Origin: Eledone cirrhosa
Lineage: Eukaryota
Length of the DNA: 64,000 nt
Assembly (NCBI GenBank): GCA_964016885.1
Contig: OZ024743.1
Coordinates: 50,592,001 to 50,656,000, forward strand
Direction of reading: 5' to 3'
How positions within the stretch are numbered: position 1 is the stretch's first letter; each line of letters begins with the position of its first letter. A model generated the notes under the pieces. The model did no database searches. It saw nothing but the letters and a program-made list of their open reading frames with translations, and had not been told where the DNA came from. The position numbers were made by a program, and so were the translations under genes. This document shows, piece after piece, positions 16,491-58,437 of the stretch.

Positions 16491-16821
16491 GAAGAAGAAG
16501 AAGAAGAAGAAGAAGAAGAAGACGAAGAAGAAGAAGAATTTCTTTATTGGCCACAAGGGCTGACATCAAGAAAAACATCACAGACGGAACAGGACGGTAC
16601 GATGTGGGTTTTGTGCGTGTAAATATTTTTATTATTTATATAGGAAAAGAAAAAAGACATAAAACATATATATAAACAATAAAATGAAAATTGAAACAAT
16701 GAAAAATTCCCCAATAGGGGGGAAACCTCCGAGGGTTATTCGTGGCGAAAACCGCACAAAACACCACGGCCACCCTGACTACCAGGGCAAGCGCCCTCTC
16801 TCAATTTTTCCATCTCTCAAA

Positions 16822-19800
16822 CTACAGACGTATATTCAGAGTGGTCCCGTTCACTCGGACCATTCTCACTACATTCACCCACCTTTCAACAAACTTGCTA
16901 GAAAGCAGCACTTGCCTCTCCACCCTGATTTTCCTCTTCAAGTGAAACTTGAAAAAGTTAATCAGGGATTCGCCGAAGAGGAAAGTGTTTGTCTTTAATC
17001 CTTTTAACCTTGTCCACCACACAATCTCTTTCGCCATGGCCACCAGGCAGATGAAAACCGCCTGCCCTTCCTCCTCAAAGGAAGACGGCGAGACTATTTG
17101 CACAATGGACTCAGTCGACAACCGGATCAGTCCCACACGTGACAGCAACTGTTCGACATAGCTCCACAAGTCAGCAATGCTCGGGCACTGAACGAGTGCG
17201 TGCACAACGGTTTCGTCGCTATGCGCTCATCTCGGACAGGCTCGGCTGACGGCACTTCCGTGCCTGTAGAGCTTATCTCGAACCGGCAGCGCTCCCCGGT
17301 AGCACTGCCAGGCCAGGGATTTTTGGAAGTTATCCATAGGCCCCGGGCTGAAAGTTCTCCGGAAGAGAGCAAGCAGCTGATCTTCTTCGACGCCCAGGAT
17401 CTCTCCGAGAACGTCGTCGCTCTTCCCCTCCACTAGTCCTCTATAAAACGCCGAGGTGGATGTTCCACCGATACTGGTGCCCAACTGGGAGAGGGCAGTG
17501 AGGGCCTAGAGACATTCCATTTTCCAAGCGCTATCCCTCGGTCTTTTTCTGACCCAGGACTGCAGCTCCGTCAAGGAGACGAGCTGTGGGAAAATGTGCC
17601 TGGCGAACGGCGACCACACCCGTTCACCATCAAGGAAGCACCAGAGATGTCGCAGTCTCAGCGCATATTTGCGCATCATCAGCCATGGCATGCCCAGTCC
17701 TCCACGCAACGGGTGTTGACAGCAGATGGATCGTCTGACCATGGGAGCGCGTCCCTTCCACAAAAAGCGGAAGAGGAGGCGCTCCATTTTGGTGAGAGTT
17801 GGGCTGGAGCAAGGGACGACGGTGAGGTGGTAGCAGATGACGGATGCGATGTACGCATTCGCCACTTCCGCCCGGCCTTTCAGGGACAGCTTCCTCTCAG
17901 CCCATTTCTGGGTGAGGGAGGCCACCCTGCTCGTCACCTCGTTCCAGTTTTTCTCCATCTGGAGGTCCAGTCCGAACCAGACCCCGAGCAATTTAATCGG
18001 TCCGTCCGTCCAACGCCCCACGACGCTGTCGGATGGCATGAACTTGCCTCTCCAGGTGCTGAGCTGCAAGCCCACCGACTTTTCCTGGTTTATCTTTGCT
18101 CCTGTCACCGTTTCGTATTCCTTGAGATCGGTGCCGAGCATCTGGACGTGTCTCGTGCTCGACACCACCACGGTGACGTCGTCGACGTAGGTCGACTCGG
18201 ATTTCCCGCATCCTAGTTCGCGTGGGACGCCCTTCATCGCCCCCAGTTTGTGCAGTAACGGCTCGAGAGCCAATACGTACAAGAGGGACGAGAGGGGACA
18301 ATCCTGGCGGACTGAGCGCATGATGCTGAACGGCTGCGACAGGTGACCGTTCACCCTCACAACTGAGCAGATGTCGCTGTACATTGCTGCGATCCAACGC
18401 CTGAAAACGGGCCCGAAACCTGCTGCCTCGAGGACCGCCGCCAGGTACCGATGGTCGACCCTATCAAATGCTTTGGATTGATCCAAGTTGATCAGGGCCC
18501 CACCCTTGCCAGGTTCCTTAACCACCCTCTCTATGATGTATCGCATGAGGTGGAGGTTGTCGTGTATGGATCTGTCCGGAATGGCGCATGTCTGCGCCTC
18601 TCCCACCAGACCCTTTACGACAAGCGCCAACCTCGTTGCTAACACCTTGGCCAAAATCTTGAACTCTGCGTTTAGCAGAGTTATGGGCCTGAAATTATCA
18701 ATAACATCCCCCTTGTTCGAGTTTTTTCTCAGCAGCGCCACTCCTCCCGGCTCACAAAACTGGGAATGCTCCCGTTCTGCTGCCAGTTGCAGTAGACGTC
18801 TGCCAAGAGGTCACCAAACAAGTCTGGCATAAATGCATAAAGCTCGTAGGGCAGACCATCTAAACCTGGCGATTTACCTCTTGTGCAGCTAGCCATCGCT
18901 TCCCGTATTTCACAGGCTGTTATTGGCTTTTCGCAACACTGTGCTGCGGTCGTCGAGAGCCGAGGCAGTCCGTCGAGGTATGCACTGAAGTCCATGTCCC
19001 GATCCGGGCCACCGCCGCTCCCGAACAGTTCAGAAAAGTGCTGCTGAAAAGCTTCACACATCCGCTCGGGTTTTAGCATCACGCACCCGTTTTGGTCAGA
19101 CAAAGACCGAATTGTGGCTTTATTGCCACGTCGCGCCTCTGCCACCCGGGCCCATTGGACGGCTTTTGTCCCCTCGTGTTTCAGAGCACGCGCTCTAGCT
19201 CTGACAACGCAGCCTTCGTGTTTTGCGTTGGAGAATTGGTCGAGTGCCAATCTCGCCGCAAGCACGTCGGTTGCGATGCCTGTCCTAAACGCCTCTTCTA
19301 GCTTTCTGACTAGCTCTCCCTCTACTCTATTTTCCTCTATCACTACTCCTTTGCTAAACCTAATCGACTCTACTTTAATTGCCCTTTTCAGGGCGAACCA
19401 CCACCTATTGTTGACGACGGCTCCCGTCAACGCCCGCTTAACTAATACGCTAATCCGGTCTCTGTAGGCCTTGCGCGCCGGGAAAGACGCGTTCAGCTTC
19501 CAGTAACCAAGCCCTTGTCTATGAAGTCTGTCTATGTCGATCTCACAGATCACAAATGTGTGGTCTGTGTAGTCGACTATTTTAAATTGTGGACAACTTA
19601 TACTAGCCTTATCTAGTTCCCTGCAGAATACCCTATCTAGATACGATCTGGATGACCCGATGCGGTTTGTCCATGTCTACATTGGCACATTCGGGGGATC
19701 CAGTCGATACCTGTCAGACAGTTCAAAACGTCTGAGCAGGTTGGTGAGGCTCTTGCACCCTCCTCCCCTATCCACTAGCCCCACACAATCCCAGCGTGCA

Positions 19801-20240
19801 TCCAAGATACCGTTCCAGTCGCCCAAAAGCACTAAAGAGCGGGACGTTCCAAGAAAGGTCTCTAGACGTCTGAAGAAATCTGGCCGTCCTGCGCCTGTTG
19901 GGGCGTAGACGGCTACTAGCCTGAAAGCATTGCCTTCGCTGCCGGTCACGTCCAGCACCACCGACTTACCTTCTGGGTCCAGGAAGATGGCCCGTATCGC
20001 GAGTTCCAAGCCTCTCCGAAAAAGGACGGCAACCCCTCCCCCCGATCCTGGACGGCTGGGAGATGCGTATACATCGTAGCCGCCGAAGATCGGTGCGAAG
20101 GCCCGTGCCTCGGAGATTCTGGTTTCACTGATGGCCACCACATCTATGTTTAGTGACCTGAGGTCATTGAGCAGGTGACCCTGCTTCTAAGATGACTCCA
20201 GGCCACGTGCATTTATACTGCCTATTCTGAGTACAGCCAT
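16822..20240 (-). pseudogene. Tx1 ORF2 (APE endonuclease, RT, C-terminal Cys/His finger), disrupted
   Basis: ISETR, VYAP, GDWNG, GYWKLN, KSPGLDGLP, FRPITLLN, DQSKAFDRV, YVDD, CPR..HA..C, split over several ORF fragments. Confidence 0.92.
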
Positions 20241-20272
20241 GTTGGATGAGAAACGAGGCAAATGAGAAAGGG

Positions 20273-22302
20273 TCACTTACCTTGTTCGTGTGGTGAAGGG
20301 ACAGTAGAACCGTCCCTTTCGCTGGTAATGGGTGTTTCCAAGAGGATATCAGCGTATATCCTCTTGGTAACCGACCCTCTGAAGTCTCCAACTGCGTTGG
20401 GAAATTTTTGTTTTAAAGGTTTGTATTGTTCTAATGAGATTTCGATGATGCTTATGTTTGTCGGGAGAGTTCTTGGTGTTGGTGGGGTGTAGTAATTTTT
20501 TTCCGTGATGTCTGTGTGCTGCTTTATATATTTTATGAGTTCTTTTTTTGCTATTTTTATGGCTGTGTACTTTTGGGGAGGAGGGGTGATTTTGTTGCCG
20601 TTTTCTTCTTGCTGCTGTTTGGTGTTTGCGTTGTTGGTGTTTGTGGTGCTGTTGCTGCAAGTTTCCTTGCTGGCTTTACCCCTCTTTGTATGCCTTCGCT
20701 TTTGGAGGGTGAATCTAAGGGTTTTTTCCTTTTTTGTTTTTTGTGGCAGACTGTTTGCCACGTCACTCCCGCCTCAAACTCCATGTCGGATTCTGTGGCG
20801 TCTGGGAGGGGTATGTGCTCCACGGCTGTTGGTGGTGGTAGTGGAGCCCTCTTCGGCAATGTTGTTGCTGGTGTAGCTATTTCAAATGTAGCTATTGGTG
20901 TTGCCGCTACTGATGATGCTGCTTTAGTTATCCGTGGCCTTGGTACGGGTGCTACGGACGTTGCCCTCCTACTCACCGTGGAAGGGGCTTCTTCGTTTGT
21001 TGCCTGTCCTGCTCTTGGTAGCAGCGGACCAGGTATTGGAAGGAGGGGGGCCCTCTTCGGTGTCATCTGCGGGCAAAATGTCCTGAGGTGACCTTTCGAC
21101 CCACAGAGATAACATTTTGGCCGTCTTAGTTCTACACTTATAGGGAGTTGGAGTCCTTCCTCAAAGTCTATGATATCGGGGATAGCCTCGATACATTCCT
21201 GGTCAGTTTGTATAAGCATTTGCATGCCTATACCTGACCAGTTCTCTCTCCCTATTTTTTCTACTTGCAGCATGGTCGCCCTGTTCTCAATTCCAGCAAG
21301 GACAGACGCGGCCAGCTAAGGTATGGGCACGTCGGGTGGGACCTGGGTCACTTTGACCCTCACAATTTTCTGCCCGCAGTAGAAGGGCACCAAGACTAAC
21401 TCCTCACTCTTTAGGGTTTCCAAAGAGTGAGACTTTGCTTCCTGGGGGGTGGCGAAAAGTACGTCTACTGTGGCGTACTTTCTGCCTCGGGTGATGTGGG
21501 TTTTGCGTGCCCAGACGCACCCCAAGGCCTTTTGGATTTGAGCCTCCGTGTCTCTCTCCACTCGATGTAAGATTTTGCTTACGGTGCGGTAAGTCACCGT
21601 TCGTAGCTGCTGATCCTTGAAAAAATCGGGTGGAGGTTTCAGGGAAACTCTATTTGCGCTTCTTGTCACCATGGCCCTTGCGACTGCCATCTCCTCCTCT
21701 GTGACTAACACTGTCTCGATATTTCGGGCGACACCTGCAAAAGAAGTGGTCCCTTTTTCAGCAGCACCACTATTGCTGCCGCTACTGGTCTTACTGGTGG
21801 TGCTGAGGTCGCTATTACAGGTATCGATGTCATTGTTGTTCTTTTCGCTGGTACAGTTGTTGGTGTTGTTTTCGTTGATACTGTTGCTGCTGTTACTGTT
21901 ATTGTGGCTGTTGTTATTATTGTTGTTTTTGTTGATACTGTTCCTACTATTATTGTTGTTGTGGCTGTTGTTATTGTCATTGTTATTGTCGTTCTCGACC
22001 TTACCGCTGTTATTTTTGTTATTGTCGTTCTCGACCTTACCGCTGTTATTTTTGTTATTGTCGTTCTCGACTTTACCGCTGTTATTTTTGGTGTTGTTGT
22101 TGGTGATGTTGTTGGTGTTATTGTTGGTGTTGTTTGTGTTAGAAATATTTGTTAATTTTAAATCTGTAACAATCTTTTTTTCCTTTGTAATATTTTCGTT
22201 TATATTTACCTCCGCTGGAACGCTGTCTTGTTGACATGTTCATAAAGTCTCCCTCTCTCTGTGTTGTCTGACAGCGCTCTCTCTCTTTTTTGTGTTATCC
22301 AT
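20273..22302 (-). pseudogene. Tx1 ORF1 (gag-like, CCHC knuckle), disrupted
   Basis: CAACATGG start at 22302; CYLCGSKGHLRTFC knuckle; in-frame stops near 22240 and 21316 and one frameshift. Confidence 0.8.
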
Positions 22303-22529
22303 GTTGAAATTTTTCAAAAGATATTTTTACACAAATACGAATACGACACCCCGTAAAGGGGTGCCGTATTATTTACTAGTGAACCCCTGTATTAGGTGGG
22401 TCATTTCTAAACTTTTATCAAATGTAAAACGGTTTAGAACGGTTGAAAAAGAGGTAAAACGTTGAAAAAGACTGGAGGCGATAAGAAGCGTGGCTTCACC
22501 AACCAATAATAATAATAATAATGTGTTGT

Positions 22530-22996
22530 ATGCAGTGGGATACAGAGAGCGGGAGGGAATTTGTTGGTTTAGTGAGAGAGCGGGAATTAACAGAGTGAAA
22601 GAGAGTGAGTTATGTAGTGTAATATAGAGAGGGGAGAGAATTTTGTGGTCTAGTGAAAGAGCGGGAATTAAGAGATTGAAAGAGAGTGAGATATGTAGTG
22701 GAATATAGAGAGAGGGAAGAAAATTTCGTGGTCTAGTGAGAGAGGGGGTTTTGAGAAAGAGTGAAGTATGTTAAGGTATGTAATGGTATAGAGTGAGGGC
22801 GAGAGAGTTTGTTGGTCTAGTGAGAGAGGGGGGAATTGTGAGATAGAGTGAGGTGTATAGTGATATATAGAGAGGGGAAAATAATTTGTTGGTTTAGAGA
22901 AAGAGGGGGAATTAAGTGCGTGGAATAAAGGGAGTTATGTAGCGAGTTATGTAGAAAGGAGAATAGAGTTTGTTGGTTTAATGAGAGAGGGGGAAT

Positions 22997-23063
<67 letters not shown>

Positions 23064-23200
23064 GGTGTAGAGTGATATATAGAGAGGGGAAGAGAATTTG
23101 TTTGTTTAGAGAGAGAGGGGCAATTAAGTGCGTGGAAGAGAGGTAGTTATGTAATGGAATATAAAGGGAGGGGGAGAATTCGGTGGTTTAGTAAGAGAGT
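22530..23200. repeat. Degenerate GA-rich minisatellite between the two Tx1 elements
   Basis: Repeating TTTGTTGGTTTAGTGAGAGAGGGGGAATT...TATATAGAGAGGGG units. Confidence 0.75.
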
Positions 23201-23441
23201 AATTTCTATTTATTTGCCACCAGGGCATCAAAGATTGGGACAACTACAAAAGAGGGAGTTTACATACATTTAAAAAGACGTGTAAAAAACATATAACAAA
23301 TTAAATTTAACAATCGATATCCTCAATAGGGAGGGGCGTTGACATGGGTCGCACACACCCCCGAAAAAATGTGCAACCCTCCTCTTCAGGAGCACAAAGA
23401 GCGGGTGCTTCCTTCCTCTTCTCATTCTTCTCCTCTCTCAC

Positions 23442-26400
23442 CTACAGGCTGATATAGAGAGAAGGCCCATTCACTCGGGCCATTCTCGCTACTTTCACCC
23501 ACCTTTCATAAAACTTGCTGGGGTAGAGCACCTCTCTCTCCATTCTGATCCTTCTTCTAAAGTGGTACCTGAAAAAAAGGACCCGTTGTTGGCCGGAGAG
23601 AAAGGTGTCTGACCTCAGCCCTTTCAACCTTGTCCACCATACAACCTCTTTCGCCATAGCTATCACACAGAGGAAAACCGCCTCTCCTTCGTTTTTGAAA
23701 GGGGAAGGCGGTTTGATCGTGACAATGTTCTCGGTGGTCAACCGGATTGGTCCCACCCGCGACAGTAGTCGTTCCACATAGCCCCACAGGTCAGCAACGC
23801 CCGGGCAGTGTACGAATGCGTGTGCGACGGTTTTCTCTTCACGCACGCATCTCGGACAGATCTTCTTCGAGGGGTCCCTACCCGGGCGCCCGTGTCTGTA
23901 GAGCTTGTCCCGAACGGGTAGAGCTCCTCGGTAACATTGCCAAGCCAGGGACTTTTGGAAGTTGTCCATCGGCCCCGGGCCAAACGTCCTACCGAACAGA
24001 CTGGCTAGCTCATCTTCCTCCATGCCCAGAGCCTCTCCGAGAGCGTCGTCGCACTTACTGCGCACCAACCCTCTATAGAATGTTGAGGTTGAGTCTCCAC
24101 TGATTGCCGGATCCGCTTGCCAGAGGGCCGTGAGCGCCTGGGCACATTCAATGTGCAAGTCGCCCACTTTTCTCGGTCTTTGCTTGACCCAGGATTGCAG
24201 TTCGGTGAGTGAGACGAGTCTCGGAAAGGCTCGCCTCACAAACAAGGCCCACACCGGCTGACCGGTGAGGAATACCTGGAGGTGCCGTAGCCTTAATGCG
24301 TGTCTACGCATTTCAGCCACGGCATCTCCAGCCCTCCGTTCGAAGGGTGTTGACAGCAGATGGATCTTCTCACCAAAGGAGCCCGCTTCTTCCAAAGAAA
24401 TCGGAAGAGCGCGCGCTCCATTTTGGCGAGTGTTTTCTCTGGGCAAGGCACGACGGTCAAGCGGTAGTAGATGACGGAGGCTATATAAGCGTTTGCCACC
24501 TCCGCTCGACCTTTCTGGGATAGTTTGCACTCGGCCCACTTCTGGGCGAGTTTAAACACCTTGCCCGTTACCTCGTCCCAGTTTTTCTCCACCTGGAGGT
24601 CCGGTCCGAACCAGATCCCGAGCAGCTTCACCGGTCCCTCCGTCCAGCGTCCGACGATGCCGTCGGAGGGCATCGGTTTGCCCCTCCACGTCCCGAGTTG
24701 CAAACCGACGGACTTGTCCCGGTTCAGCTTGGCTCCTGTGAACGTTTCATATTCCTCCAGTAAGGTGCCGATCTGCCCGATTTCCGAGGCGCACGACACC
24801 ATTACTGTCACGTCATCGGCGTAGGCCGACAACGCTTTCCACAATCCCGGTTCCAAGGGGATGCCCTGCAACAGCTCATGCTTCCGCAGTAGTGTCTCGA
24901 GAGCCAGCACATACAGAAGGGAGGAGAGAGGGCATCCCTGTCGAAGGGATCGCGTGATTTGGAACGGCTCCGAGAGGTAGCCGTTCACCTTGACCCTCGA
25001 GCAGATGTTGCTGCTGTGCATTGCAGCAATCCAGCCCCTGAAAACGGGTCTGAAGCCTGCCGCCGCGAGCACCGCATCCAGGTACCGACGGTCGACCCTA
25101 TCGAACGCCTTAGATTGATCCAAGTTGATCAGGGCTCCACCAAAGCCGGGTTCGTTCCCTACGCTCTCTACGATGTATCGCATGAGGTGGAGGTTGTCGT
25201 GTATGGACCTGGACGGGATTGCGCATGTCTGCGCTTCTCCCACCAGGTTCCCGACGACAAGTGCCAACCTCTTCGCTAACACCTTGGCCAAAATCTTTAA
25301 CTCTGTGTTTAGCAGAATTATGGGCCTGAAGTTATCTATGTCATCCCCCTTGTTCTCGTCCTTCCTCACCAGGGTCACTACGCTCTTGGTCACAGAACTG
25401 GGAATTCTCCCGTTCTGTTGCCAGTTGCAGTAGACCGCCTCGAGGAGACCGGAGAACAAGCTCGGCATCGCTACATAAAGTTCGTATGGTAGACCATCGA
25501 GACCCGGAGATTTGCGTTTGCCGCATTGGCTCAGCGCTTCCCCTATTTCAGCGGCTGAAATCGGCCTCTCGCAGGACTTCGCCTCCCCGTCCGAGAGCCG
25601 CGCCAGACCGTCGAGGTATGGACCGAAATCCATGGCCCCACCCGGCCCGCCGCCCCTCCCGAACAGTCGTGCAAAGCGCCGTTGAAAGGCCGCGCTCATC
25701 CGCTCAGGTTCAAGGATCACGCGTCCATCCTGGTCTTTCAAAGACCGAATCGTGGACTTGTTTCCACTTTTTGCCTCTGTCACTCGGGCCCAGCTAACAG
25801 CTTTGGCTCCCTCGTTACCCAGAGCACGTATTTTACTCCTGAAAACGCAGCCCTCGTACTTCGCATCAAAGAACTGGTCTAGGGCCGTTCTTGACGCCAG
25901 CACGCCGGCCACGTTGCCACTCCTAATCGCCTCTTCTACTCTATCTCTTAATTCCCTTTCAGTTCTATTCCTATCTGATGCTAATTCCTGACTAAAACCT
26001 ATCAATTCTATTCTAATTTCTCTCTTGAGAGAGCCCCACCACCTGCTGTTGACAATTGCCCCCGTCAACCGCTGCTTAACTAGTGTGCTAATCCGCTTAC
26101 TGTAAGCTTTGTTTGTCGGTAAAGACAAGTTTAGCTTCCAGTAACCGGGTCCCTGTCTATGAGTTCTATCAAGGTTGACCACTCCGGTCACTAACTTGTG
26201 ATCCGAATAGTCAACCATGAACATTCGTGGACAGCTTAATATGTCCCTATCCTTATTTCTAACTAGGAACCTATCTAGGTACGACCTAGATGTTCCGCTA
26301 TGATTAGTCCACGTCTACAGTGGCACAGTCGATATCTATCGGCCAGATCAAATCGGCCTATTAATCGTTTGAGGCTGTTACACCCTCCTCTATCGGGACA

Positions 26401-26864
26401 TGCCCTACATAATCCCAACGTGCATCCAGGATGCCATTCCAGTCCCCCACTAAAAGCAAGGAGCGAGACGTTCCCAGGAAATTCTCCAGGCGTCGGAAGA
26501 AGTCCGGTCGCGGTGTCCCAGATGGGGCATACGCTGCCACTAGCCTGAAAGCTCCACCTTCACTACTGCCGACGTCTAAAACCACCAGTCGACCCTCCGG
26601 GTCCAGGTGTACCTTCTGTGTGGCAAGACCCAGGTATTTTCGCAGCAGAACGACAACCCCACCCCCACCCCTCGGCTGACAGAGAGATGCGTAGATCTCA
26701 AAGTCGTCGAAGATGGGGGCCAGTTGGCGCTCGCTGCTGATCCTGGACTCGCAAATAACCATTACATTCACTCTGTGCGACCTGAGGTCATTTAAGAGTT
26801 TGCCCTGTTTCCAGGACATCCCCAGGCCGCGTGCATTCACACATCCAACTCTTATATTGGCCAT
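23442..26864 (-). pseudogene. Tx1 ORF2 (APE, RT, zinc finger), frameshifted
   Basis: NARGL, ICESR, YAP, GDWNG, YSDH, RQGCPLS, YADD, CPRC..HA..C. Confidence 0.93.
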
Positions 26865-26905
26865 GTTGGTGCTGAAGAGTTAAAAGGAAGTGGAAAGGAA
26901 ATTAC

Positions 26906-28748
26906 TTACCTCTTCGTCTCCTGGGGACCAGGCTGCACAATTTCCATGGGGGTGTTGGAAGGGTTGTTTGGTGGGGTGGTGGTTTGTGGTGGGGTGAGGA
27001 CATCAGTGTGTGGTGGGATTGGGGTGTTTGGTGGGGTGTGGGTGTCTGGTGTGGGGGTGGGGAAACATCTCAATAGGACGCTGTTAAGTGGTTTGGTGCA
27101 GTTGGTCCCCACATGCATTGGATGGTTCTTTTTCAGAGTTACATAGATTTCCGTTGGGACCCTAATCATCATTAGGTGCGGTTTGTCCGCTGCGTAGGTG
27201 AAAGTGATCCCTTCGGTTTCCACCGAAGGGTTATTGTCTATTGCTTTCATCAAAGTTTTAATGTTTTTGTTAATGTATGTATAGAGTTTTTGTTGTGTTG
27301 TGTTTGTTTTTGTTTTTGTTTGTTGTTCTTGTGCGTGTTTACGTTTTGTAGTATGTGTTATGTTTTCGGGAGGAGTGGGTTTTTTTGTTTGTGATGTTTG
27401 TTCTGTTTGTGCTGGTGGTTGTGTGTTTGTTGCATTTTTGTTAATGTGGCGCCTTTTTTTTTCACCTGTTGAAAGGGTTCTCCCTCGTCGACACTGGGTG
27501 ACGTTGATACGGAGTTTTCTTCCGTGTTGTTGGGGAGGGGTATATTTTGGGGTTTTGTTGTGGTTGCTTTTGTATCTGTTTTAGGTGGGGAGGGGTTGGG
27601 TGGAACAGTGTCTTGTGTTGTTATTTTTTCGTGTTGTTGTAGTTGTTGTTGTTGTTGTGGTGGTGGTGGTGGTGGTGGTGGTGGTGGTGGTGGTGGTGGT
27701 GGTGGTGGTGGTGGTGGTGGTGGTGGTTGTGTTGTTGTGTTCGGGGTTGGCAGAAGAGCCTTTTTTTTTACTCGTTAATTGACGACAGGCAGCCCTCATG
27801 TGACCCCTGCTTAAGCAGTGGTAACATGACGGCCGCCTTCCCTCCACTGAAATGTTTATATAAGTTAGCCCGTCCAGAGGCACGCGTTGTGGGGTATTCG
27901 CTATTCGTTCTGGGCTCATTTGCACCAGAACTTCTACGCTGATCCCACCAAATACACCTCCGGGGGACTTTCCTACTGAAATTATCCTGTCTTCATCAAA
28001 GTCAATGAATCCACATAGTATCCACCAAATATTTACATTTGGTGTGATACTCATAATTTTTTATTCTTTGTGTTCTTTTTCCCCTGTATGTGGGGAAAAA
28101 GGTGAAGCGGGGGGACACAATGGGTGATACAGAGTATGTTTGTGCTGTTGGCTGGTTATTCATTAGCACCGAAATGCTACCAAACAGTTTTCCTTTTTGG
28201 ATGAAGGTTATGTCCTTCATTGCATCTTTTAGAACCAGCACATTTTCATTTTGTGATAATTGAGCTGGTTTTCTTGTTTCGTTAGATATTGTCCTGAAAA
28301 CCACAGTTTTCAGAACAGCTTCTCTACGTAATACCTGTGGAGAATTGATGCTAAAAGCACCGTTTTCGCCAAAAGTCATGAATTGTTTTGCGTCTTGTAG
28401 TAGTTGTTTAGCATTTGTTATGTCAATTGGCGTGTATAGTTCGTTTATTTTTACAGTCTGTGCGAACGTTGTTTTGGTGTTGTTGTCTTTTTTGTTGCTG
28501 TTGTTGTTGTCACTGTTGTTGATATTGTTCATGTTTTCCTTGGTGTTGTTATTGTTACAGTTGTTGGTTGTGGTGTTATTGTCATTGTTCTTGTTGTTGC
28601 GGGTTTGGTTCCGTGGTTTCAATTTTCAACGTTTTTCGATAATGCGAGGGGGGGAAGGCTGCAAGCTTTGTACTCCTACCTTCCCTCCACCACTTATCTT
28701 AGTGAACGTGGTACTCACGACAGTGTGCGAGGTTGAAATGGCATCCAT
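26906..28748 (-). pseudogene. Tx1 ORF1 with CCHC knuckle, frameshifted
   Basis: CAACAATGG start at 28748; RRPSCYHCLSRGHMRAAC; Asn/Thr low-complexity tracts. Confidence 0.8.
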
Positions 28749-29798: not shown

Positions 29799-29851
<53 letters not shown>

Positions 29852-29855
<4 letters not shown>

Positions 29856-32210
29856 ATAATAATAAATTTGAAGACTAAAATCCAAAGAGGGCTCGATAAG
29901 GATAAATATATATCAAATATATAAGAACCGTAGAGAAAATATTTATTAAAATAACAGATTAAAGTTTAAACAAAGAATCGCTGCTTTCACCCTTAACGGG
30001 ATCTTCTGAAACTAACAAAGTCAATCTGTGAACGCAGAAGTGAGTATTTCAAAAAACGTTGCAACCGGAGGAAGACAGGAAGACGATACTTTGGTTCGTG
30101 GAAACGTTCCCTGGCAAAGAACGGGAAAAAACGAATATAATACGTCATTATTTGGAGCGGTGAAAAACAATTACACGCAAAGACAAAACCACGTTTATGC
30201 TCTACGGTTCTTATATATTTGATATATATTTATCCTTATCGAGCCCTCTTTGGATTTTAGTCTTCAAATTTATTATTATTACTATTTGGCTCCCTCGGTT
30301 GAGCACTTCATTGACTTATATTCATCATGCAGAAACAACATCTGAATATTTTTACAAAGAACATACCCGTACCAAGCAGGAAAACATACCTAAAACTCCT
30401 GATACAGAAAACAGACGCGTTCATTAAAAGGTTTCGTTGGCGTGCCTTTTATTTTGATAATCAGGGAAAAGCAGACAACAAACAGGATAAATTTGGGTTT
30501 AAAACTTATAATAACCCTCCGAGTATCCCAGCATTGCTACCCTTCGAAAATGATGTCTTGGAACTCATACGGAGTATCAAATTTCGGAATAGGAGCAATT
30601 CCTTCCAGCAAGACCTGAAGAATAGAATTCGTTCTATTAAGGATTCTAATGCCATGCATGTCCATTCCGACAAAACTGGCAACCTATATCAAGTGGAGCG
30701 CAGTACCTACCATCAACTACTACATAATGCTGCGACTAAGGATTACCGTAAAACTAATCGGTGCGTCATTAATCAAATCAACGATGCTGGGTTTAAAATC
30801 ACCTCCTATCTCAACATCCTGGACCGGACCGAACCTCTGGACTCTATTTCTCCCCACTTTACCCTGAGGATCACAAATCCAATTTTCCGAACAACCCCTC
30901 TATTCGGCTTATTAACCCTACGAAGTCCGATTTAGGTAGACTTAGTAAAAGGATTCTTGATAGAATTATACCTGAAATTAGAAGTTTGGCCCCTCTTGCA
31001 CTGTGGAACAATTCTTTCGCGGTGATTGACTGGTTCAACGGCATATGTAACAAGGAACATTGCCGTTTTATCCAATTCGACATCAATAATTACTACTCCT
31101 CCATCACTTTACCACTTCTCCTTAGAGCTATCAATTTTGCTAAACACTCACAGCGGTTAAAGATTTCGAAGTCGATGTCATCCTCAATGCCCGTAAGTCG
31201 GTGATTAATTTCGACGACTCTATTTAGATTAAAAAATCTAATAGTACCCCATTCGACGTGAGTATGGGCGCCAGCGATTCTACGGAGGTGACTGATCTTA
31301 TCGACCTTTTCCTTCTTTTCTCTATCAAGGACGAATTCCCCAACGAGGGCAGTGGTTTGTACCGTGATGATGGTCTTTTGACCATGACTAAGTGCGGCCC
31401 ACGTGCTTGCGACAGGTTCAGAAAACTCACAGCCTTCTTTAAAGGCTTCTTCAACCTCTCTATACAGGTTGAGGCCAACCTCTCGGTCGTTAATTACCTC
31501 GACGTTACCCTCAATTTATCGAATGGCTTGTATTACCCGTATAGAAAGCCGAATGATACGCTTAATTGCATAAGTAAGCATTTTAACCATCCTGCCATCA
31601 TAACCAAGAACCTGGTAAGAAACGTTTCTTTGAGGCTTTCCCGTCTAACGAGCATATTTTCAACGACCATTCCACATATTACAATGAAGCTCTTGCTCGG
31701 AGTGGATTTGTCGATAAGGTAGCATATACAGAGTACGAGAATAGATCTAGAAGAAATAGATCCCGACGCATTATATGGTATAACCCACCATATAATATGG
31801 AGGTGGCCACACCATTAGCTAAGATCTTTCTCTCCCTTATTACGAAGCATTTTGCCTCTACACATAAATATAGTAACATTTTTAATAGAAATACTATCAA
31901 AATTTCTTACTCTACGACTCCTAGCCTTGCACATAACATCACAGCTTCAAATTTAGCTGAACTACCTAGCCGTAGGAACACGTGCAACCCTGTAGTTAGT
32001 ACTAACTATAATTGTAGGAATCGGGTTGACTGCCCCCTATCCGGGAAATGCCTCTCTAGTAACATTGTCTACAAATGTAAGGTTGAAACACCCACGTCCC
32101 GTAGGGCCTACATAGGGTTAACCGCCAATAGATTCAAGCAGCGTCTTTACATGCATACCCATTCTTTTCGTTACCCTCTAAGAAGGAATATGACGTCACT
32201 TTCAGCTTAA
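29852..32210 (+). mobile_element. Penelope-like element (Naiad-type) with inverted 5' pLTR piece, 3'-truncated
   Basis: 84-bp inverted repeat (29852-29935 / 30200-30283) upstream of the ORF; starts at a (TA)n tract. Confidence 0.88.
30327..32210 (+). pseudogene. PLE RT-GIY-YIG ORF, frameshifted
   Basis: KNIPVP, RFRWRAF, SDKTGN, QFDINNYY, MGASD, GLYRDDGL, YLDVT, WYNPPY, NCRNRVDCPLSGKCL, IVYKC..AYIG..FKQR. Confidence 0.9.
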
Positions 32211-34387: not shown

Positions 34388-36175
34388 ATTTCTTTATTAG
34401 CCACAAGGGCAAAAGAAGGGGACAAATACAAATGGGGAGTTTACATAGAGGTATATGAAAATAAAACTATTAATAAAATAACAAATAACAATTGAAATCC
34501 CCAATAGGGGGAGGCGTTACACAGGGGTTGTACACACCCCGAAAAAATGTACAACCCTCATCTCCAGGAGCACCAAGAGTGAGTACTCCCTTCCTCTCTT
34601 CCTCTTTTTCCTCAACCGACAGGTTTATATAGAGAGAAGGCCGAACCACTCGAGCCATCTTTGCCACATTCACCCACCTTTTATAAAATTTGCTGGGGTA
34701 CAGCACCTCTCTCTCCATCCTGATTCTTCTTCCAAAATGATATTTGAAAAAACGAATCAGTTGCTTGCCGGAGAGAAAGGTGTCTTTTAACCTCGTCCAC
34801 CATATAACCTCTTTCACCATAGCGATAACACATAGGAAAACCGCCTGTCCCTCGTTTTTGAAAGAGAGTGGCGGTTTGATCATGACAATGGACTCGGTGG
34901 TCAACTGGATTGGTCCCACCCGCGAAATAGTCGTTCTACATAGCCCCACAGGTCGGTAACGCTCGGGCAGTGTACAAATGCGTGCGCGACGGTTTCCTCG
35001 TCGCGCACGCATCTCAGACAGATCTTTTTCGAAGGGTCCCTGCCCGGGCGTCCGTGTCTGTAGAGCTTGTCTCGAACTGGTAGAGCTCCTCGGTAGCACT
35101 GCCAGGCCAGGGACTTTTGGAAATTGTCCATTGGTCCCGGGCGGAAAGTCCTACCGAACAGACTAGCCAGTTCGTCCTCCTCTACGCCTAGAGTTTCTCC
35201 GAGCGCGTCGTCGTACTTGCTGCGGACCAACCCTCTATAGAATGTCGAAGTGGAGTCTCCACTGACCGCCGGGTCCGTGAGCGCCTGAGCACATTCGATT
35301 TGCCAGTCGCCCATTTTCCTCGGTCTTTGCTTGACTCAGGACTGCAGCTCGGTCAGCGAGACGAGTCGGAGGAAGGCTCGCCTCACGCACGAGGCCCACA
35401 CCGGTTGTCCGGTGAGGAATACGTGGAGGTGCCGCAGCCTGAGCGCGCGTTTGCGCATCGTCAGCCACGGTATCCCCAGCCCTCCGTTTGAGGGTGTTGG
35501 CAGCAGATGGATCTTCTCACCAAAGGAGCCCGTTTCTTCCAAAGGAATTGGAAGAGCGCGTGCTCCATTTTGTTGAGCGTTTTGGCTGGACAAGGCACGA
35601 CGGTCAAGTGGTAGTAGATGACGGACGCTATAAAAGTGTTCGCCACCTCCGCTCGACCTTTCAAGGATAGTTTGCACTCGGCCCACTTCTGGGTGAGCGC
35701 AAACACCTTGGCCGTCACCTCGTTCCAGTTCTTCTCCACCTGGAGGTCCAGACCAAACCAGACCCCGAGCAGCTTTACCGGTCCTGCGGTCCAGCGATCG
35801 ACGACACCATCGGAAAGGATCGGTTTTCCTATCCACGTTCCGAGTTGCAAACCGACGGATTTGTCCCGGTTCAGCTTCGCTCCTGTGAACCTTTCGTATT
35901 CCTCCAGTAAGGTGCCGACCTCCCCGATTTGCGAGGTGCTTGACACCATTATGGTTATGTCGTCGGCGTAGGCCCACGCCACTTTTCGCAGTTCCGGTTC
36001 CAAAGGGATGCCCTGCAATAGCTCCAACTTCCGCAGTAGTGGCTCGAGAGTCAGTACGTACAGAAGGGAGGGGAGAGGGCATCGTAGTCGGATGGATCGC
36101 GTGATATGGAACGGCTCCGAGAGGTAGCCTTTCACCTTGACCCTTGAGAAGATGTTGCTGCTGTACATTGCAGCA
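34388..36175 (-). mobile_element. 5'-truncated Tx1 copy (related to family 2) inserted in (GATA)n
   Basis: RT YADD through C-terminal finger and 3'UTR; GATA repeats on both flanks. Confidence 0.92.
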
Positions 36176-36311
36176 TAGATAGATAGAGAGATAGATAAAG
36201 AGATAGAGAGATAGAGAGATAGAGAGATATGTGTGTTATACCTGGTTGTTGTATAACATCTATATAATTGTGTGTTGTGTGTTAAACTTAGCGGCTGTAT
36301 ATTATTATAGT

Positions 36312-36500
36312 AGCGGTTGATTGGCAGTATCGGTAGAGGGTTGGACGCCATGCTTTGCAGCAAAGAGTTACGGCCCTTTATGGTCTGTGTTCAAATCCAG
36401 CCGACTTAACTTTGTCTTTCATCCTTACGGGGTCGATAAAATAAAGTACCAGTAATATACTGGAATAATTGCTAGCTTTGTACCAAAAGTAGAAACAATT
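36312..36500 (+). mobile_element. SINE family B
   Basis: Similar to 14267-14456. Confidence 0.85.
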
Positions 36501-48601: not shown

Positions 48602-49677
48602 CATATATATAAAACTGAAATTGTCTCTCTGTGTGTGTGTCCTAATTTTTGCAAAGTCTATACAAATCTACATTTCTACTCCGATTTACTTCAAACTTGT
48701 ATTTATATGTTCCTTGCAGTCTAAAGATATTAACAGCAGCTTTTATTGTTCAATTTTTTGTTGTTAAAGGGGTGTTAGGCACCGGTTATCGATCTCTCTC
48801 CCTCTTTCTTAGTCTGTCTTTTTAGACGACTCGCTGTTTCCCTTCGGTTGCAACGTTTTTCGAAATATTTACTTCTGCGTTCACAGATTGATTGTTTTAG
48901 TTTCAGAAGATCCCGTTGAGGGTGAAAGCAGCGATTCTTTGCTTAAACTTTAATCTGTTATTTCAATATATATATATATATATATATATTGAAATTTCCG
49001 TTGAAAACAGAAAAGGTCATAGAAGTGAAGAGTGCTCTATGTAAGTACCAGAGCAAAATTAAATGTATAAAAATCAATACAATATAATTACCTCATTACC
49101 AGAGGTTTCCCGAATGAGGCGAATACGAAAGAAACGTCTTCATTCGTTCGTCAGACGAGGCAATATAAAACATGGCTAAATACTTGGAAAGTCTCATCAA
49201 GAAAAACAAAAAAAATATAGACGAATGAATTACAATATGAAATATATAAAAATCTTTCAAGAAATATAGTTAGGTGTGTGTATATGTATGTATATACGCT
49301 CACAGATGTGCATATATGTGTATGCACAAATGTATACGTATAGTGAAAAAGTGTGCGTAAATATATATTTTAGGGCAAATGTATCTGTGTGTCTGTAAAC
49401 TACAGACAGACATGATGTGGTTTTCTGTTTGGCAGGTACACGGAAAAAATAGGGTAATAGATACATCATAAGAATATAAAGGCACGCGTATAAACACACC
49501 CACGGACACGTACACTTATATGCGGAAGTAAAAGAGGTAAGGGAGTGTAATAATTAAAAGAAAGTATCGTTCTCGATATATTTATAAAAATGGAACAATA
49601 ATTTAGAAAGAAAAAATTAAAGAAAAGAAGACAAACAAGGTACACGCATACACACACACGTATATCTACAAGAAACG

Positions 49678-50636
49678 ATGTAGATTTCCTAGATATAAAC
49701 CTAGATTTGCCTACTGCCTCTTATAAACCATACCATAAACCTAATGAAAACTTAAAATATATAAATAAAGGCTCTTGCCATCCTCCTATAGTTTTTAAAA
49801 ACCTTATCCCTAATATTAGCCGTAGGATCTCCACCCTCTCTTCCTCAGAAGCTATTTTTAATAAGGCATCCCCCTACTATAATAAAGCCCTCCAAAATAG
49901 CGGTTTTAGCGAACCGATTAAATACATACCCAACTATACTAACTCTATTAAACATAAAAACAGGAAAAGAAAAATAATCTGGTTCACACCACCCTACTCT
50001 CTAGCAGTTAAAACTAATGTAGGCACAAAATTCCTAGAGCTCCTAGATAAACATTTCCCTAGAACACATAGATACTATAAGATCTTTAACAGAAACTGTG
50101 TCAAAATTCGCTATTCCTGCGATCCCCCTATTAAGTCATATATCATCAACAAAAAATCACCTAGAGAAAATCAAAATTGCTCCTGTAGAATCAAAAGTGA
50201 ATGCTCATTACAAGGTAAATGCAACACCAAAGCCATTGTATATGCGGCTAAAGTGACAACCATCAGCAACAACCATCCAGCCACCAGTGAACGATATGTG
50301 GGTATGACGCAAGACAAATTCAAAACGCGTTATTACTCACATGTCGCATCCTTTCGACATCCAGAAAAAAGATTTACAACAGCTCTGGTTAGCAGAATTT
50401 GGGATTTGAAAGACCAAGGCATCCAATATAAATTGGATTGGTCAATTTTGAACCAATCTAAAGAATATGCTAGAGGAACAAGAAAATGCACGCTCTGCAT
50501 AAATGAAAAATATTGGATCTTGCAAAATCTTAAATCACCAAAGACGGAAATTTTCACCAGTTGCCCACACATGAAATCACACCTGCTTTCCAGCTCATAT
50601 AAACTTAACACACTTTCAGATACTTATCCTCCATAA
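49678..50636 (+). CDS. PLE C-terminal ORF fragment (RT thumb, Cys linker, GIY-YIG endonuclease)
   Basis: FLDINL, YKPYHKPN, HPP, IIWFTPPYS, CSCRIKSECSLQGKC, IVYAA..RYVG..FKTRY, CTLCINEK, CPH; open frame but 5'-truncated. Confidence 0.88.
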
Positions 50637-54185: not shown

Positions 54186-54240
54186 ACTGCCTGAAGAGGT
54201 CACAGCCAAAGATGGCTGTCACTGAAATATATATAGCAGT
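54186..54240 (+). ncRNA. Type I hammerhead ribozyme motif
   Basis: ACTGC-CTGAAGA-(ACAGCC..GGCTGT)-GAAA-TATATA-TA-GCAGT immediately followed by AATAAA; unit bracketed by a 36-bp inverted repeat (54035-54070 / 54256-54291). Confidence 0.8.
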
Positions 54241-56163: not shown

Positions 56164-56230
<67 letters not shown>

Positions 56231-56234
<4 letters not shown>

Positions 56235-57471
56235 GTGCGGATGCATTCATGTATATGTGTGTGTCCGCATGTATCTGTGTGTTTCTAAATATATTGTTAA
56301 TAACTCCCTCTGGTCGAGCAATCTTTGAAGTGTGGGGACTGCTGGAAAGCTTCCATTGCTCATACTTCTCGCCAACCTCACCACCTCTTCTACGGCTTCG
56401 ATATAAATACCCCCTCCGCCTCCGTGGTATTTTCTTCGGGGTTATAGGAGGCTTAGCTCTGTTTCTCGACCGTTATATCGCGTGACTGTCTCCCCCTCCG
56501 CCTTTTGGGATTCTTTCTCACGTCGTGTAGACGCGTTCTTGAGACTAGTAAAATGAGGTATCCTCTTGATAAGTCGGCAGACCTCGCAAGGACTCTATAT
56601 CTTTATGATGTATTGTTTTTGTTTATGCCACGAAACTACGTAGTCGAGGAATCTAGGAGCAGTTTGGGTATGATACATTTTATTACTAATTATATCTAAA
56701 TGTTTCTTCTCTCTTCATAATGTATTTTTAACTCTGATACTGGTTCAGTCTAGTTCAACCGGATTGGTCTGTCCCAGTCATTCATTGAGCAACATCGGTG
56801 AAGTTGGCACCCTTAACTCACGGTTGGGTGCGGATGCATTCATGTATATGTGTGTGTCCGCATGTATCTGTGTGTTTCTAAATATATTGTTAATAACTCC
56901 CTCTGGTCGAGCAATCTTTGAAGTGTGGGGACTGCTGGAAAGCTTCCATTACTCATACTTCTCGCCAACCTCACCACCTCTTCTACGGCTTCGATATAAA
57001 TACCCCCTCCGCCTCCGTGGTATTTTCTTCGGGGTTATAGGAGGCTTAGCTCTGTTTCTCGACCGTTATATCGCGTGACTGTCTCCCCCTCCGCCTTTTG
57101 GGATTCTTTCTCACGTCGTGTAGACGCGTTCTTGAGACTAGTAAAATGAGGTATCCTCTTGATAAGTCGGCAGACCTCGCAAGGACTCTATATCTTTATG
57201 ATGTATTGTTTTTGTTTATGCCACGAAACTACGTAGTCGAGGAATCTAGGAGCAGTTTGGGTATGATACATTTTATTACTAATTATATCTAAATGTTTCT
57301 TCTCTCTTCATAATGTATTTTTAACTCTGATACTGGTTCAGTCTAGTTCAACCGGATTGGTCTGTCCCAGTCATTCATTGAGCAACATCGGTGAAGTTGG
57401 CACCCTTAACTCACGGTTGGGTGCGGATGCATTCATGTATATGTGTGTGTCCGCATGTATCTGTGTGTTTC

Positions 57472-57478
<7 letters not shown>
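56231..57478 (+). mobile_element. 2.1 tandem copies of a 593-bp non-coding unit with a variant hammerhead (retrozyme-like)
   Basis: Units 56231-56823 and 56824-57416 are almost identical, plus a partial third; (TA)n on both flanks; HHR motifs at 56561-56650 and 57154-57243. Confidence 0.8.
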
Positions 57479-57530
<52 letters not shown>

Positions 57531-58437
57531 TTATATATATATTTACATACATACAACCATACATACATAAAACCATACATACATACATACATACAACCAT
57601 ACATACATACATACATACATACATACATACATACATACATACATACATACATACTTGCATACATACATACCTACATGCACATATATGGTGGCTGCCAACT
57701 CGTTTTCGAGTACGGCCACTACTTTATATCCATGTAGGAGAACCCCTACCGATGCGCTGAACGAGTGTGACTTTTTAGTCCAGCTAGCGACTTGAAAACT
57801 CTGCTATAAACACTACACTTGTGGCAATTATTGACACATAGTGCTGGGCCCATGGTAACATGTGACGACAAGTGCAGAGAAATCTCCAGATATGAAGCAA
57901 TGCCTGTGCCGTGAAGCTTTTATAGTGAGCAAAGGCACTGCACAAAACCAGTCCCACTCTGTTAACCAAGATGATATTTACCAAAAAGAAGAACAAGTCA
58001 ACATCATTGGATACCATCAGGGTTGCAGGTGTTATATCAGAGTTTTCCTTCTCCTAGAATTCTTCCTTGACAAAAGCTAAGGGGTCATCTCTCCCGGTGA
58101 TTTTGGATGGCCATTGACTCTTAAGAGCTCCTTTGCCCTTTGACAGGTTTTGTTTTTAGTCCTGCAGGATGTCCACAGTCACCCTCCTCACCAAGAAACC
58201 TTGGTGGGGTTGCAAGTTTAGTCGCCAACGACCCGCCCATGGGACAGGTTGTACTGGGATACATGTTACTAGTAGCACCAACTGGTGACCTGACATATAC
58301 ATATACATACATACATACATACGTACATACATACATACATACATACATACATACAACCATACAACCATACAACCATACATACATAGAGATATCTACTGAT
58401 AAAGTCGAAAATGACATTATCAATTTAACACCTCGAT

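Follow-up and report, generated by a model that had tools for sequence, protein, structure and literature searches.

Animal non-LTR retrozymes are described as non-coding tandem units with one type I hammerhead ribozyme each, a GC content below 50%, highly self-paired RNAs, thousands of genomic copies and co-resident Penelope-like elements (PMC7229834; bioRxiv 10.64898/2026.07.22.740005). Hammerheads with a U3-A8 core pair have been reported for about 1,300 sequences related to the Cercyon Penelope-like elements of Schistosoma (Cervera and de la Peña, PMC4209133), and the same pair was described as a natural covariation that is active in vitro (Perreault et al. 2011, PMC3088659). Penelope-like elements of the Hydra clade insert into (TA)n targets and carry hammerheads (PMC8557442), and the Poseidon element of Anolis was reported to nick both strands in AT-rich DNA, with a dimeric enzyme predicted (PMC11167929). 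The origin of tandem retrozyme and Penelope-like arrays is disputed. A circular template has been proposed (PMC4209133, PMC7229834), from which reverse transcriptase would make tandem cDNA in the proposal of PMC7229834; local, satellite-like array growth has also been proposed (bioRxiv 10.64898/2026.07.22.740005); and for Poseidon in vitro, uncut RNA was reported as the main template and cleavage as dispensable (PMC11167929). The genomic marks described below bear on this choice.

The window, which is the whole stretch of 64,000 nucleotides of Eledone cirrhosa DNA that was analysed, contains a complete insertion of 2.1 units on the plus strand at 56231-57480. The insertion is one-armed and 5'-truncated, and its 3' terminus is a fixed end designated B. 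It is located between a left (TA)n target tract at 56174-56231 and a right tract at 57475-57553, neither assigned to a strand; the 3' bases of the insertion overlap the TA tract in sequence, and the exact last position (57480) is ambiguous. The tandem has a period of 593 bp with one mismatch across 56231-57480 (56358 G, 56951 A). Unit 1 occupies 56233-56825 (q1-q593, where q is the position within the unit and q1 is 56233) and unit 2 occupies 56826-57418. Six-frame translation shows no long open reading frame in the unit. The first-pass annotation had described 2.1 head-to-tail copies of a non-coding 593-bp unit between two (TA)n tracts, each copy with a type I hammerhead around a UUGAUAA core, and this description is borne out, with stems, GAAA and GUC site all located. 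Nearby, 57690-58290 holds a separate young, high-copy repeat that is about 96% identical to copies elsewhere.

On its testable features, namely tandem units that each have a type I hammerhead, no coding frame, no attached reverse transcriptase gene and dispersed copies, the element belongs to the animal non-LTR retrozymes, and it also resembles those described in low GC content, self-pairing, copy number and the presence of Penelope-like elements in the same genome. It differs from them in length (593 nt versus reported RNAs of 170-400 nt, although a consensus of up to 972 bp has been reported) and in its U3-A8 core, 46-nt loop II, TA targets, two fixed ends and inverted arms.

In copy 1 of the hammerhead (56561-56650), stem I is formed by TCCTC at 56561-56565 and GAGGA at 56646-56650 (5 bp), the core TTGATAA is located at 56566-56572, and stem II pairs GT(C)GGCA at 56573-56579 with TGCCAC at 56626-56631 (6 bp), closing the 46-nt loop II. 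GAAA follows at 56632-56635, the palindrome ACTACGTAGT spans 56635-56644, and C17, after which cleavage is predicted, is at 56645. Copy 2 (57154-57243) is offset by +593, with C17 and the predicted cut at 57238. The NUH cleavage site (GUC), the GAAA and a core that has a Watson-Crick pair between positions 3 and 8 are those of a type I hammerhead. Stems I, II and III comprise 5, 6 and 3 bp, with stem I open-ended, and 96% of the alignment cells are paired. The ribozyme stems are invariant and give no evidence of covariation, with no pair altered on both sides and the shuffle control not beaten. Rfam returns no hammerhead match at E<=10, a weak test given that Rfam at the gathering score also misses the canonical-looking hammerheads of three other loci (L241, L246 and L069). 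Among the wider copies, seven loci (L193, L195, L198, L201, L204, L205 and L219) form a sub-lineage in which the bulged C of stem II, the sole unpaired base of the stem, is changed to U. A loose scan also finds hammerhead-like motifs with a canonical core elsewhere in the window, at 54186, 63140(-)/63267(+) and 63839, with 63140/63267 forming an inverted pair.

Folding predictions place the active hammerhead fold about 4 kcal/mol above the local minimum. For the palindrome, a dimer duplex is predicted at -14.3 kcal/mol versus +0.8 kcal/mol for a monomer hairpin, so the modelled energetics favour a dimer. Alternatively, a possible pseudoknot between the stem I side and loop II (56555-56585), predicted to pair GAGGU at 56555-56559 with ACCUC at 56581-56585, could support a monomer hammerhead; pseudoknots of this kind have been described in hammerheads by Perreault et al. 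(PMC3088659). These two strands are conserved without covariation, one of their pairs is broken in 7/36 copies of an older subfamily, and the GAGG of GAGGU is predicted to be able to pair with CCUC of stem I instead. Loop II also contains an internal hairpin (56586-56622) in which A-U/G-U changes preserve pairing across subfamilies. The predicted 593-nt monomer or circle, taken from cut site to cut site (56646-57238), folds far better than shuffled sequences (z = -5.0). Over the whole monomer, 6 of 155 consensus pairs are changed on both sides among the eight units compared, and many one-sided A-U/G-U changes retain the fold. Stem I is blocked in the predicted circle, where its 5' strand is occupied by GAGG and the 3' strand is paired close to a second fixed end, designated A; the same block is predicted for both young units and the old unit. 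By this model, the block would permit cutting during transcription while protecting the circle. The ribozyme is considered quite likely to be active.

The frequency of the U3-A8 pair was determined with a 23-nt family pattern for the ribozyme's 5' half that accepts any base at positions 3 and 8. Searched genome-wide, this pattern gives 5,973 matches versus 0 for the reversed control, and a looser family pattern gives 6,687. U3-A8 is present in 5,950 of the 5,973 copies and C3-G8 in none. Another base at position 3 occurs in 11 copies, all of which retain A8 (none has G8), and 12 copies keep U3 but differ from A at position 8 (7 G, 4 T and 1 C). Single changes at either position are as rare as ordinary post-insertion mutation. 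The first-pass annotation had left open whether genomic copies would show the pair as fixed, as covarying with C3/G8, or mostly with one of the two changes alone; the pair is fixed, it does not covary with C3-G8 inside the family, and single changes are confined to 23 of 5,973 copies. The novelty that the same annotation attached to U3-A8 was overstated, as the pair had already been published (PMC4209133, PMC3088659).

The Schistosoma Cercyon hammerheads (PMC4209133), as far as their description extends, share with this element the U3-A8 pair, a 5-bp stem I, a long stem II and a palindromic stem III region. They differ from it in that U3-A8 is here fixed in a homogeneous, tandem, non-coding family whose hammerhead forms a 3-bp stem III and lacks an extra base between A9 and G10.1. 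With a generic U3-A8 pattern, 4,945 genome matches are obtained, some of them counted twice, versus 31 for controls. The 30 loci examined from this search (L220-L249, for example L226 and L241; G000 C1:6519941-6521556) belong to an unrelated tandem retrozyme family of 316-324 bp, in which U3-A8 goes with a 4-bp stem II that covaries and with a palindromic stem III. Its insertions have inverted arms and TA flanks, there are thousands of matches, and Rfam misses the family. Another two hammerhead-like motifs that have U3-A8 but different stems were observed at G000 C1:61772693, C1:65379868 and C1:52141231. The U3-A8 core variant is itself ordinary, and with at least two large families here that carry it, a search that insists on CUGANGA would arrive at too low a number of hammerheads for this genome.

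The family comprises about 6,000 ribozyme-bearing units dispersed over many contigs. The first 100 pattern matches fall into 56 clusters, which suggests about 3,300 loci genome-wide. Identities between subfamilies span 99% to 80%, and TTGATAA is kept in 35/36 ribozyme copies of the 80%-identity subfamily. When the window unit is compared with the column majority of the older subfamily, 0/43 ribozyme positions differ versus 98/533 others (p=4.5e-4, a value inflated by the use of a 14-mer of the ribozyme to find that subfamily); without the 14-mer positions the count is 0/29, with p of about 0.003 by hand calculation. The two longest unchanged runs in this comparison are the two halves of the ribozyme. 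This conservation between subfamilies agrees with the first-pass interpretation, which is supported in part. In the older subfamily (L107-L136), the 12 nt right after stem I (q419-430) vary much more than other parts of the unit. Patterns designed for short-stem and for diverged relatives give 2 and 2 matches, none of which was shown to be autonomous. The family may already be listed in the supplements of PMC8557442 or PMC7229834.

The head-to-tail junction also recurs in 4/4 public runs examined (X5, X6, X10 and X12), where circular contigs of 590-591 nt keep the core unchanged. These contigs confirm the junction outside the assembly and, together with the 5,973 genome matches to the ribozyme 5' half, exclude chance as well as the assembly artefact against which the first-pass annotation had cautioned. 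The same contigs were considered as evidence for circular RNA or for spread to other species, and this was rejected: the same four runs contain the unrelated neighbouring repeat at 57690-58290 about 3-4 times as deeply, and the contigs are therefore put down to trace genomic DNA. None of the 20 public runs that hold the unit is on record as RNA, and these runs have no bearing on expression.

Insertion anatomy was analysed in 83 position-sampled clusters, consisting of the 56 behind the first 100 matches and 27 new ones behind another first 100. TA is present on both sides in 75/83 clusters and on one side in 8/83. The 3' ends fall at two sites that are 162 nt apart on the circle: end A (q493; 56715-56725, with a second occurrence at 57318) and end B (q62; 57470-57480), which would correspond to reverse-transcription start sites 1 and 2, respectively. 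The window insertion uses end B. One-armed insertions end at A in 23 cases and at B in 17, with 1 irregular, and two-armed inverted insertions comprise 38 with A+B, 1 with A+A, 0 with B+B and 3 with an irregular end. Inverted insertions thus have one of each end in 38/39 cases, where independent choice would give about half mixed, and the A+A exception (L145) is a junction of an old and a young copy. From this strict pairing we infer that each subunit of a reverse transcriptase dimer takes one start site. In one locus (L149), an entire two-armed insertion is duplicated 2.55 kb apart.

Insertions measure 0.4 to 7.7 units. Their 5' truncation points are scattered, with 1/118 at the cut site and 14/118 at q423-445, just 3' of the cut, where young copies show a cluster. 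In 166 of 166 ribozyme 3' halves the cut site is crossed without an indel. Truncation at the 5' side, partial tandems, an inverted arm and an optional tail are Penelope-like traits, and the TA flanks, two ends and 5' truncation constitute Penelope-like anatomy with a tail. The first-pass view of a young, high-copy, non-coding retrozyme with such anatomy is supported, and the element is very probably a non-autonomous retrozyme mobilised by a Penelope-like enzyme. Two internal reverse-transcription starts that define a tail are also reported for Anolis Poseidon in vitro (PMC11167929), the starts being inferred here. That account gives no strand difference in start site, whereas the arms here take different sites.

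The window insertion has no reverse transcriptase plus GIY-YIG open reading frame of an autonomous Penelope-like element, and in the first 56 stretches no retrozyme cluster continues into a Penelope-like frame. The window does hold Penelope-like remnants, one of them from an abundant family with a 719-aa open reading frame, whose locus L069 is the candidate partner. Read by eye and without a tree, this frame contains RWK, DKT, a CxCX5C linker, CxxC, CxH and a C-terminal endonuclease; it has no match in Pfam, and in the Atlas clusters nearest to it 25-31% of the members have HTH_animal. By these sequence features the 719-aa family appears to fit the Hydra clade as described in PMC8557442. The hammerhead of this family is a C3-G8 one of its own; TA flanks are present, and the two ends lie about 75 nt from each other. 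The 10-mer CTCTGATACT occurs a few bases after end A in both this family and the retrozyme (q500; 56732-56741, with a second occurrence at 57325-57334), and the chance of this sharing is about 1e-5 for ten offsets. The hammerheads of the two differ and only the 10-mer is shared. Of the several Penelope-like families resident in the genome, the 719-aa one was compared, and blastn gives no match to the unit at any of 30 loci; a homologous pLTR was not found there, a further point of difference from the described animal retrozymes. The two ends, the TA flanks and the shared 10-mer make a Hydra-type element the likely mobiliser, a partnership that the sequences lean towards and that is not established. 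Relative to the Hydra clade of PMC8557442, (TA)n targets and hammerheads are held in common. So are 5' truncation, partial tandems, copies in inverted orientation and a one-ended tail, which are traits of Penelope-like elements at large; the retrozyme differs in having no open reading frame and a tail of 162 nt versus 30-40 bp.

Several other repeats were noted. The left flank of one diverged copy (L042) was considered as a coding parent element and rejected as an unrelated dispersed repeat ending in CTAG. This repeat (L042:640-1097 and L078-L106) is at least 450 bp long, ends in a GC-rich repeat plus CTAG and has 1,222 candidates; by resemblance, it is presumably Helitron-like. Within the window, 30315-32210 and about 48990-50636 are broken Hydra-type Penelope-like elements. 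They come from two families that share 37% identity across 196 aa, and both have inverted ends in TA tracts. The segments at 48800-48990 and 29850-30300 hold the terminal repeat of another Penelope-like family, with an unusual CAGAAGA...GAAA motif and apparently two ends, and 16500-28600 and 34400-36400 contain several degraded LINE copies with endonuclease and reverse transcriptase frames.

Variants were then scored by comparing the units within each locus with the column majority of the subfamily, and a variant was called shared if present in all covering units. The set of 591-bp subfamily loci was defined by motif with a 96.5% cut, as a 98% cut had dropped one locus (L175) and admitted loci of intermediate type. 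Sense-strand A>G accounts for 21/35 shared versus 1/25 single-unit variants in the discovery set (22 loci), for 20/36 versus 2/32 in a fresh set (27 loci) and for 41/71 versus 3/57 when these are pooled. Counted as distinct sites, the pooled set has 21 A>G versus 6 T>C (p=4e-5) and 4 C>T; the third commonest shared class is G>A (8/71). Only 1 variant is partly shared, versus 57 in single units and 71 fully shared, and 31 shared events span both inverted arms. The 593-bp subfamily, sampled as 29 loci picked for likeness to the window, gives A>G in 12/28 shared versus 8/92 single-unit variants. No A>G excess is found in the older subfamily (5/19 versus 17/111, p=0.32), two of whose loci overlap, and a first analysis in which subfamilies were mixed was weak (A>G 7/29 versus 3/50; A>G versus T>C p=0.12). 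The shared events are non-independent, with 424A>G recurring in 8 loci and perhaps ancestral. Two haplotypes, both picked for several A>G, were also searched genome-wide: a stretch of L173, an insertion of 1.9 units, has three A>G inside 16 nt and is confined to the 2 units of that locus, and the stretch of L175 is confined to its 7 units, across both arms. The pattern of A>G shared by all units of an insertion is new and held on fresh loci; like the two fixed ends and the inverted arms, it had escaped the first-pass annotation; a literature search, with subscription journals and supplements mostly outside its reach, found no paper on editing marks in genomic retrozyme or Penelope-like copies.

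Since A>G is fully shared and rarely partial or confined to one unit, it appears to enter at a stage with one copy per position and then to be multiplied within the insertion, which points to a monomer RNA template that is read more than once. A monomer RNA is accordingly considered the most likely template. That this monomer was circular is probable: the exact crossings of the cut site and the near absence of truncations there favour a ligated circle over jumping. A cut linear monomer on which a telomerase-like reverse transcriptase jumps back, making a circle unneeded, would account equally well for the shared private variants, and the truncation points clustered just 3' of the cut are to its credit. 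Template jumps, though, usually add or lose bases, and all 166 junctions are exact; priming is also internal, at ends A and B, rather than at the cut end, and jumping is considered improbable. Similarly unfavoured, at slightly lower probability, is a template that is multimeric and uncut, transcribed from a uniform parent array, with the hammerhead kept for another step or for late action. Many shared variants do recur across loci and are thus inherited, and uncut RNA is the outcome reported for Poseidon in vitro (PMC11167929), from which this family differs in that its variants point to a monomer. Edits made on a multimer would be expected in single units, but A>G makes up 3/57 of single-unit variants, and the assembly contains no parent for the stretch of either L173 or L175. 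Satellite-like homogenisation of units after insertion, through unequal crossing-over or gene conversion, has been proposed for retrozyme arrays (bioRxiv 10.64898/2026.07.22.740005) and is very unlikely here. It conflicts with the single partly shared variant, with shared events that cross inverted arms, and with arms of less than 2 units, such as the 1.9 units of L173, which a shorter copy cannot have reached by gaining one full unit; moreover, a change at the DNA level would not favour sense-strand A>G.

For the A>G changes themselves, ADAR is the probable source. Coleoids show heavy RNA editing, and relative to the ADAR neighbour preference, the 21 sites have a 5' G in 1/21 (p=0.034) and a 3' G in 7/21 (p=0.042), a context that fits ADAR weakly. 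The sites do not concentrate in predicted pairs (0.53 versus 0.61). Transcription error, RNA-to-RNA copying, or a wrongly assigned polarity combined with tolerance of A-U to G-U changes could instead have produced the A>G class, a reading supported by the weak neighbour bias, the rank of G>A among shared variants and the many one-sided A-U/G-U changes that preserve the fold. C-G/U-G changes would be equally tolerated, yet C>T and T>C reach only 4 and 6 sites against 21 for A>G, and private clusters of 3-4 A>G at one locus (L173, L175) also speak against these alternatives; a non-ADAR source is considered unlikely.

Taken as a whole, the element is probably a non-coding retrozyme of about 6,000 copies in (TA)n that is moved by a Hydra-type element from an edited, probably circular monomer read repeatedly. 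The proposed process would begin with transcription of a tandem locus. The hammerhead would fold co-transcriptionally, either as a palindrome dimer or as a pseudoknot-held monomer, and cut after GUC; the monomer would then be ligated and refold with its ribozyme blocked, and a few of its adenosines would be edited by ADAR. Subsequently, a dimeric reverse transcriptase-endonuclease would nick both (TA)n strands, with its two subunits priming at end A and end B, respectively, and copying 0.3 to about 5 rounds apiece. A stronger and more tentative reading, for which the odds fall a little short of even, is that ADAR edits on one circle are written as a barcode into every unit and both arms of a new germline insertion via the dimeric Penelope-type enzyme, whose subunits would start from different fixed sites of that circle, with editing as the family's main source of heritable variation. 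If this reading is true, the genome is a record of the retrozyme life cycle, and retrotransposition makes RNA edits heritable, provided that ADAR is the source of the marks. With thousands of young insertions that carry natural RNA-level marks, models of array origin become separable from DNA alone.
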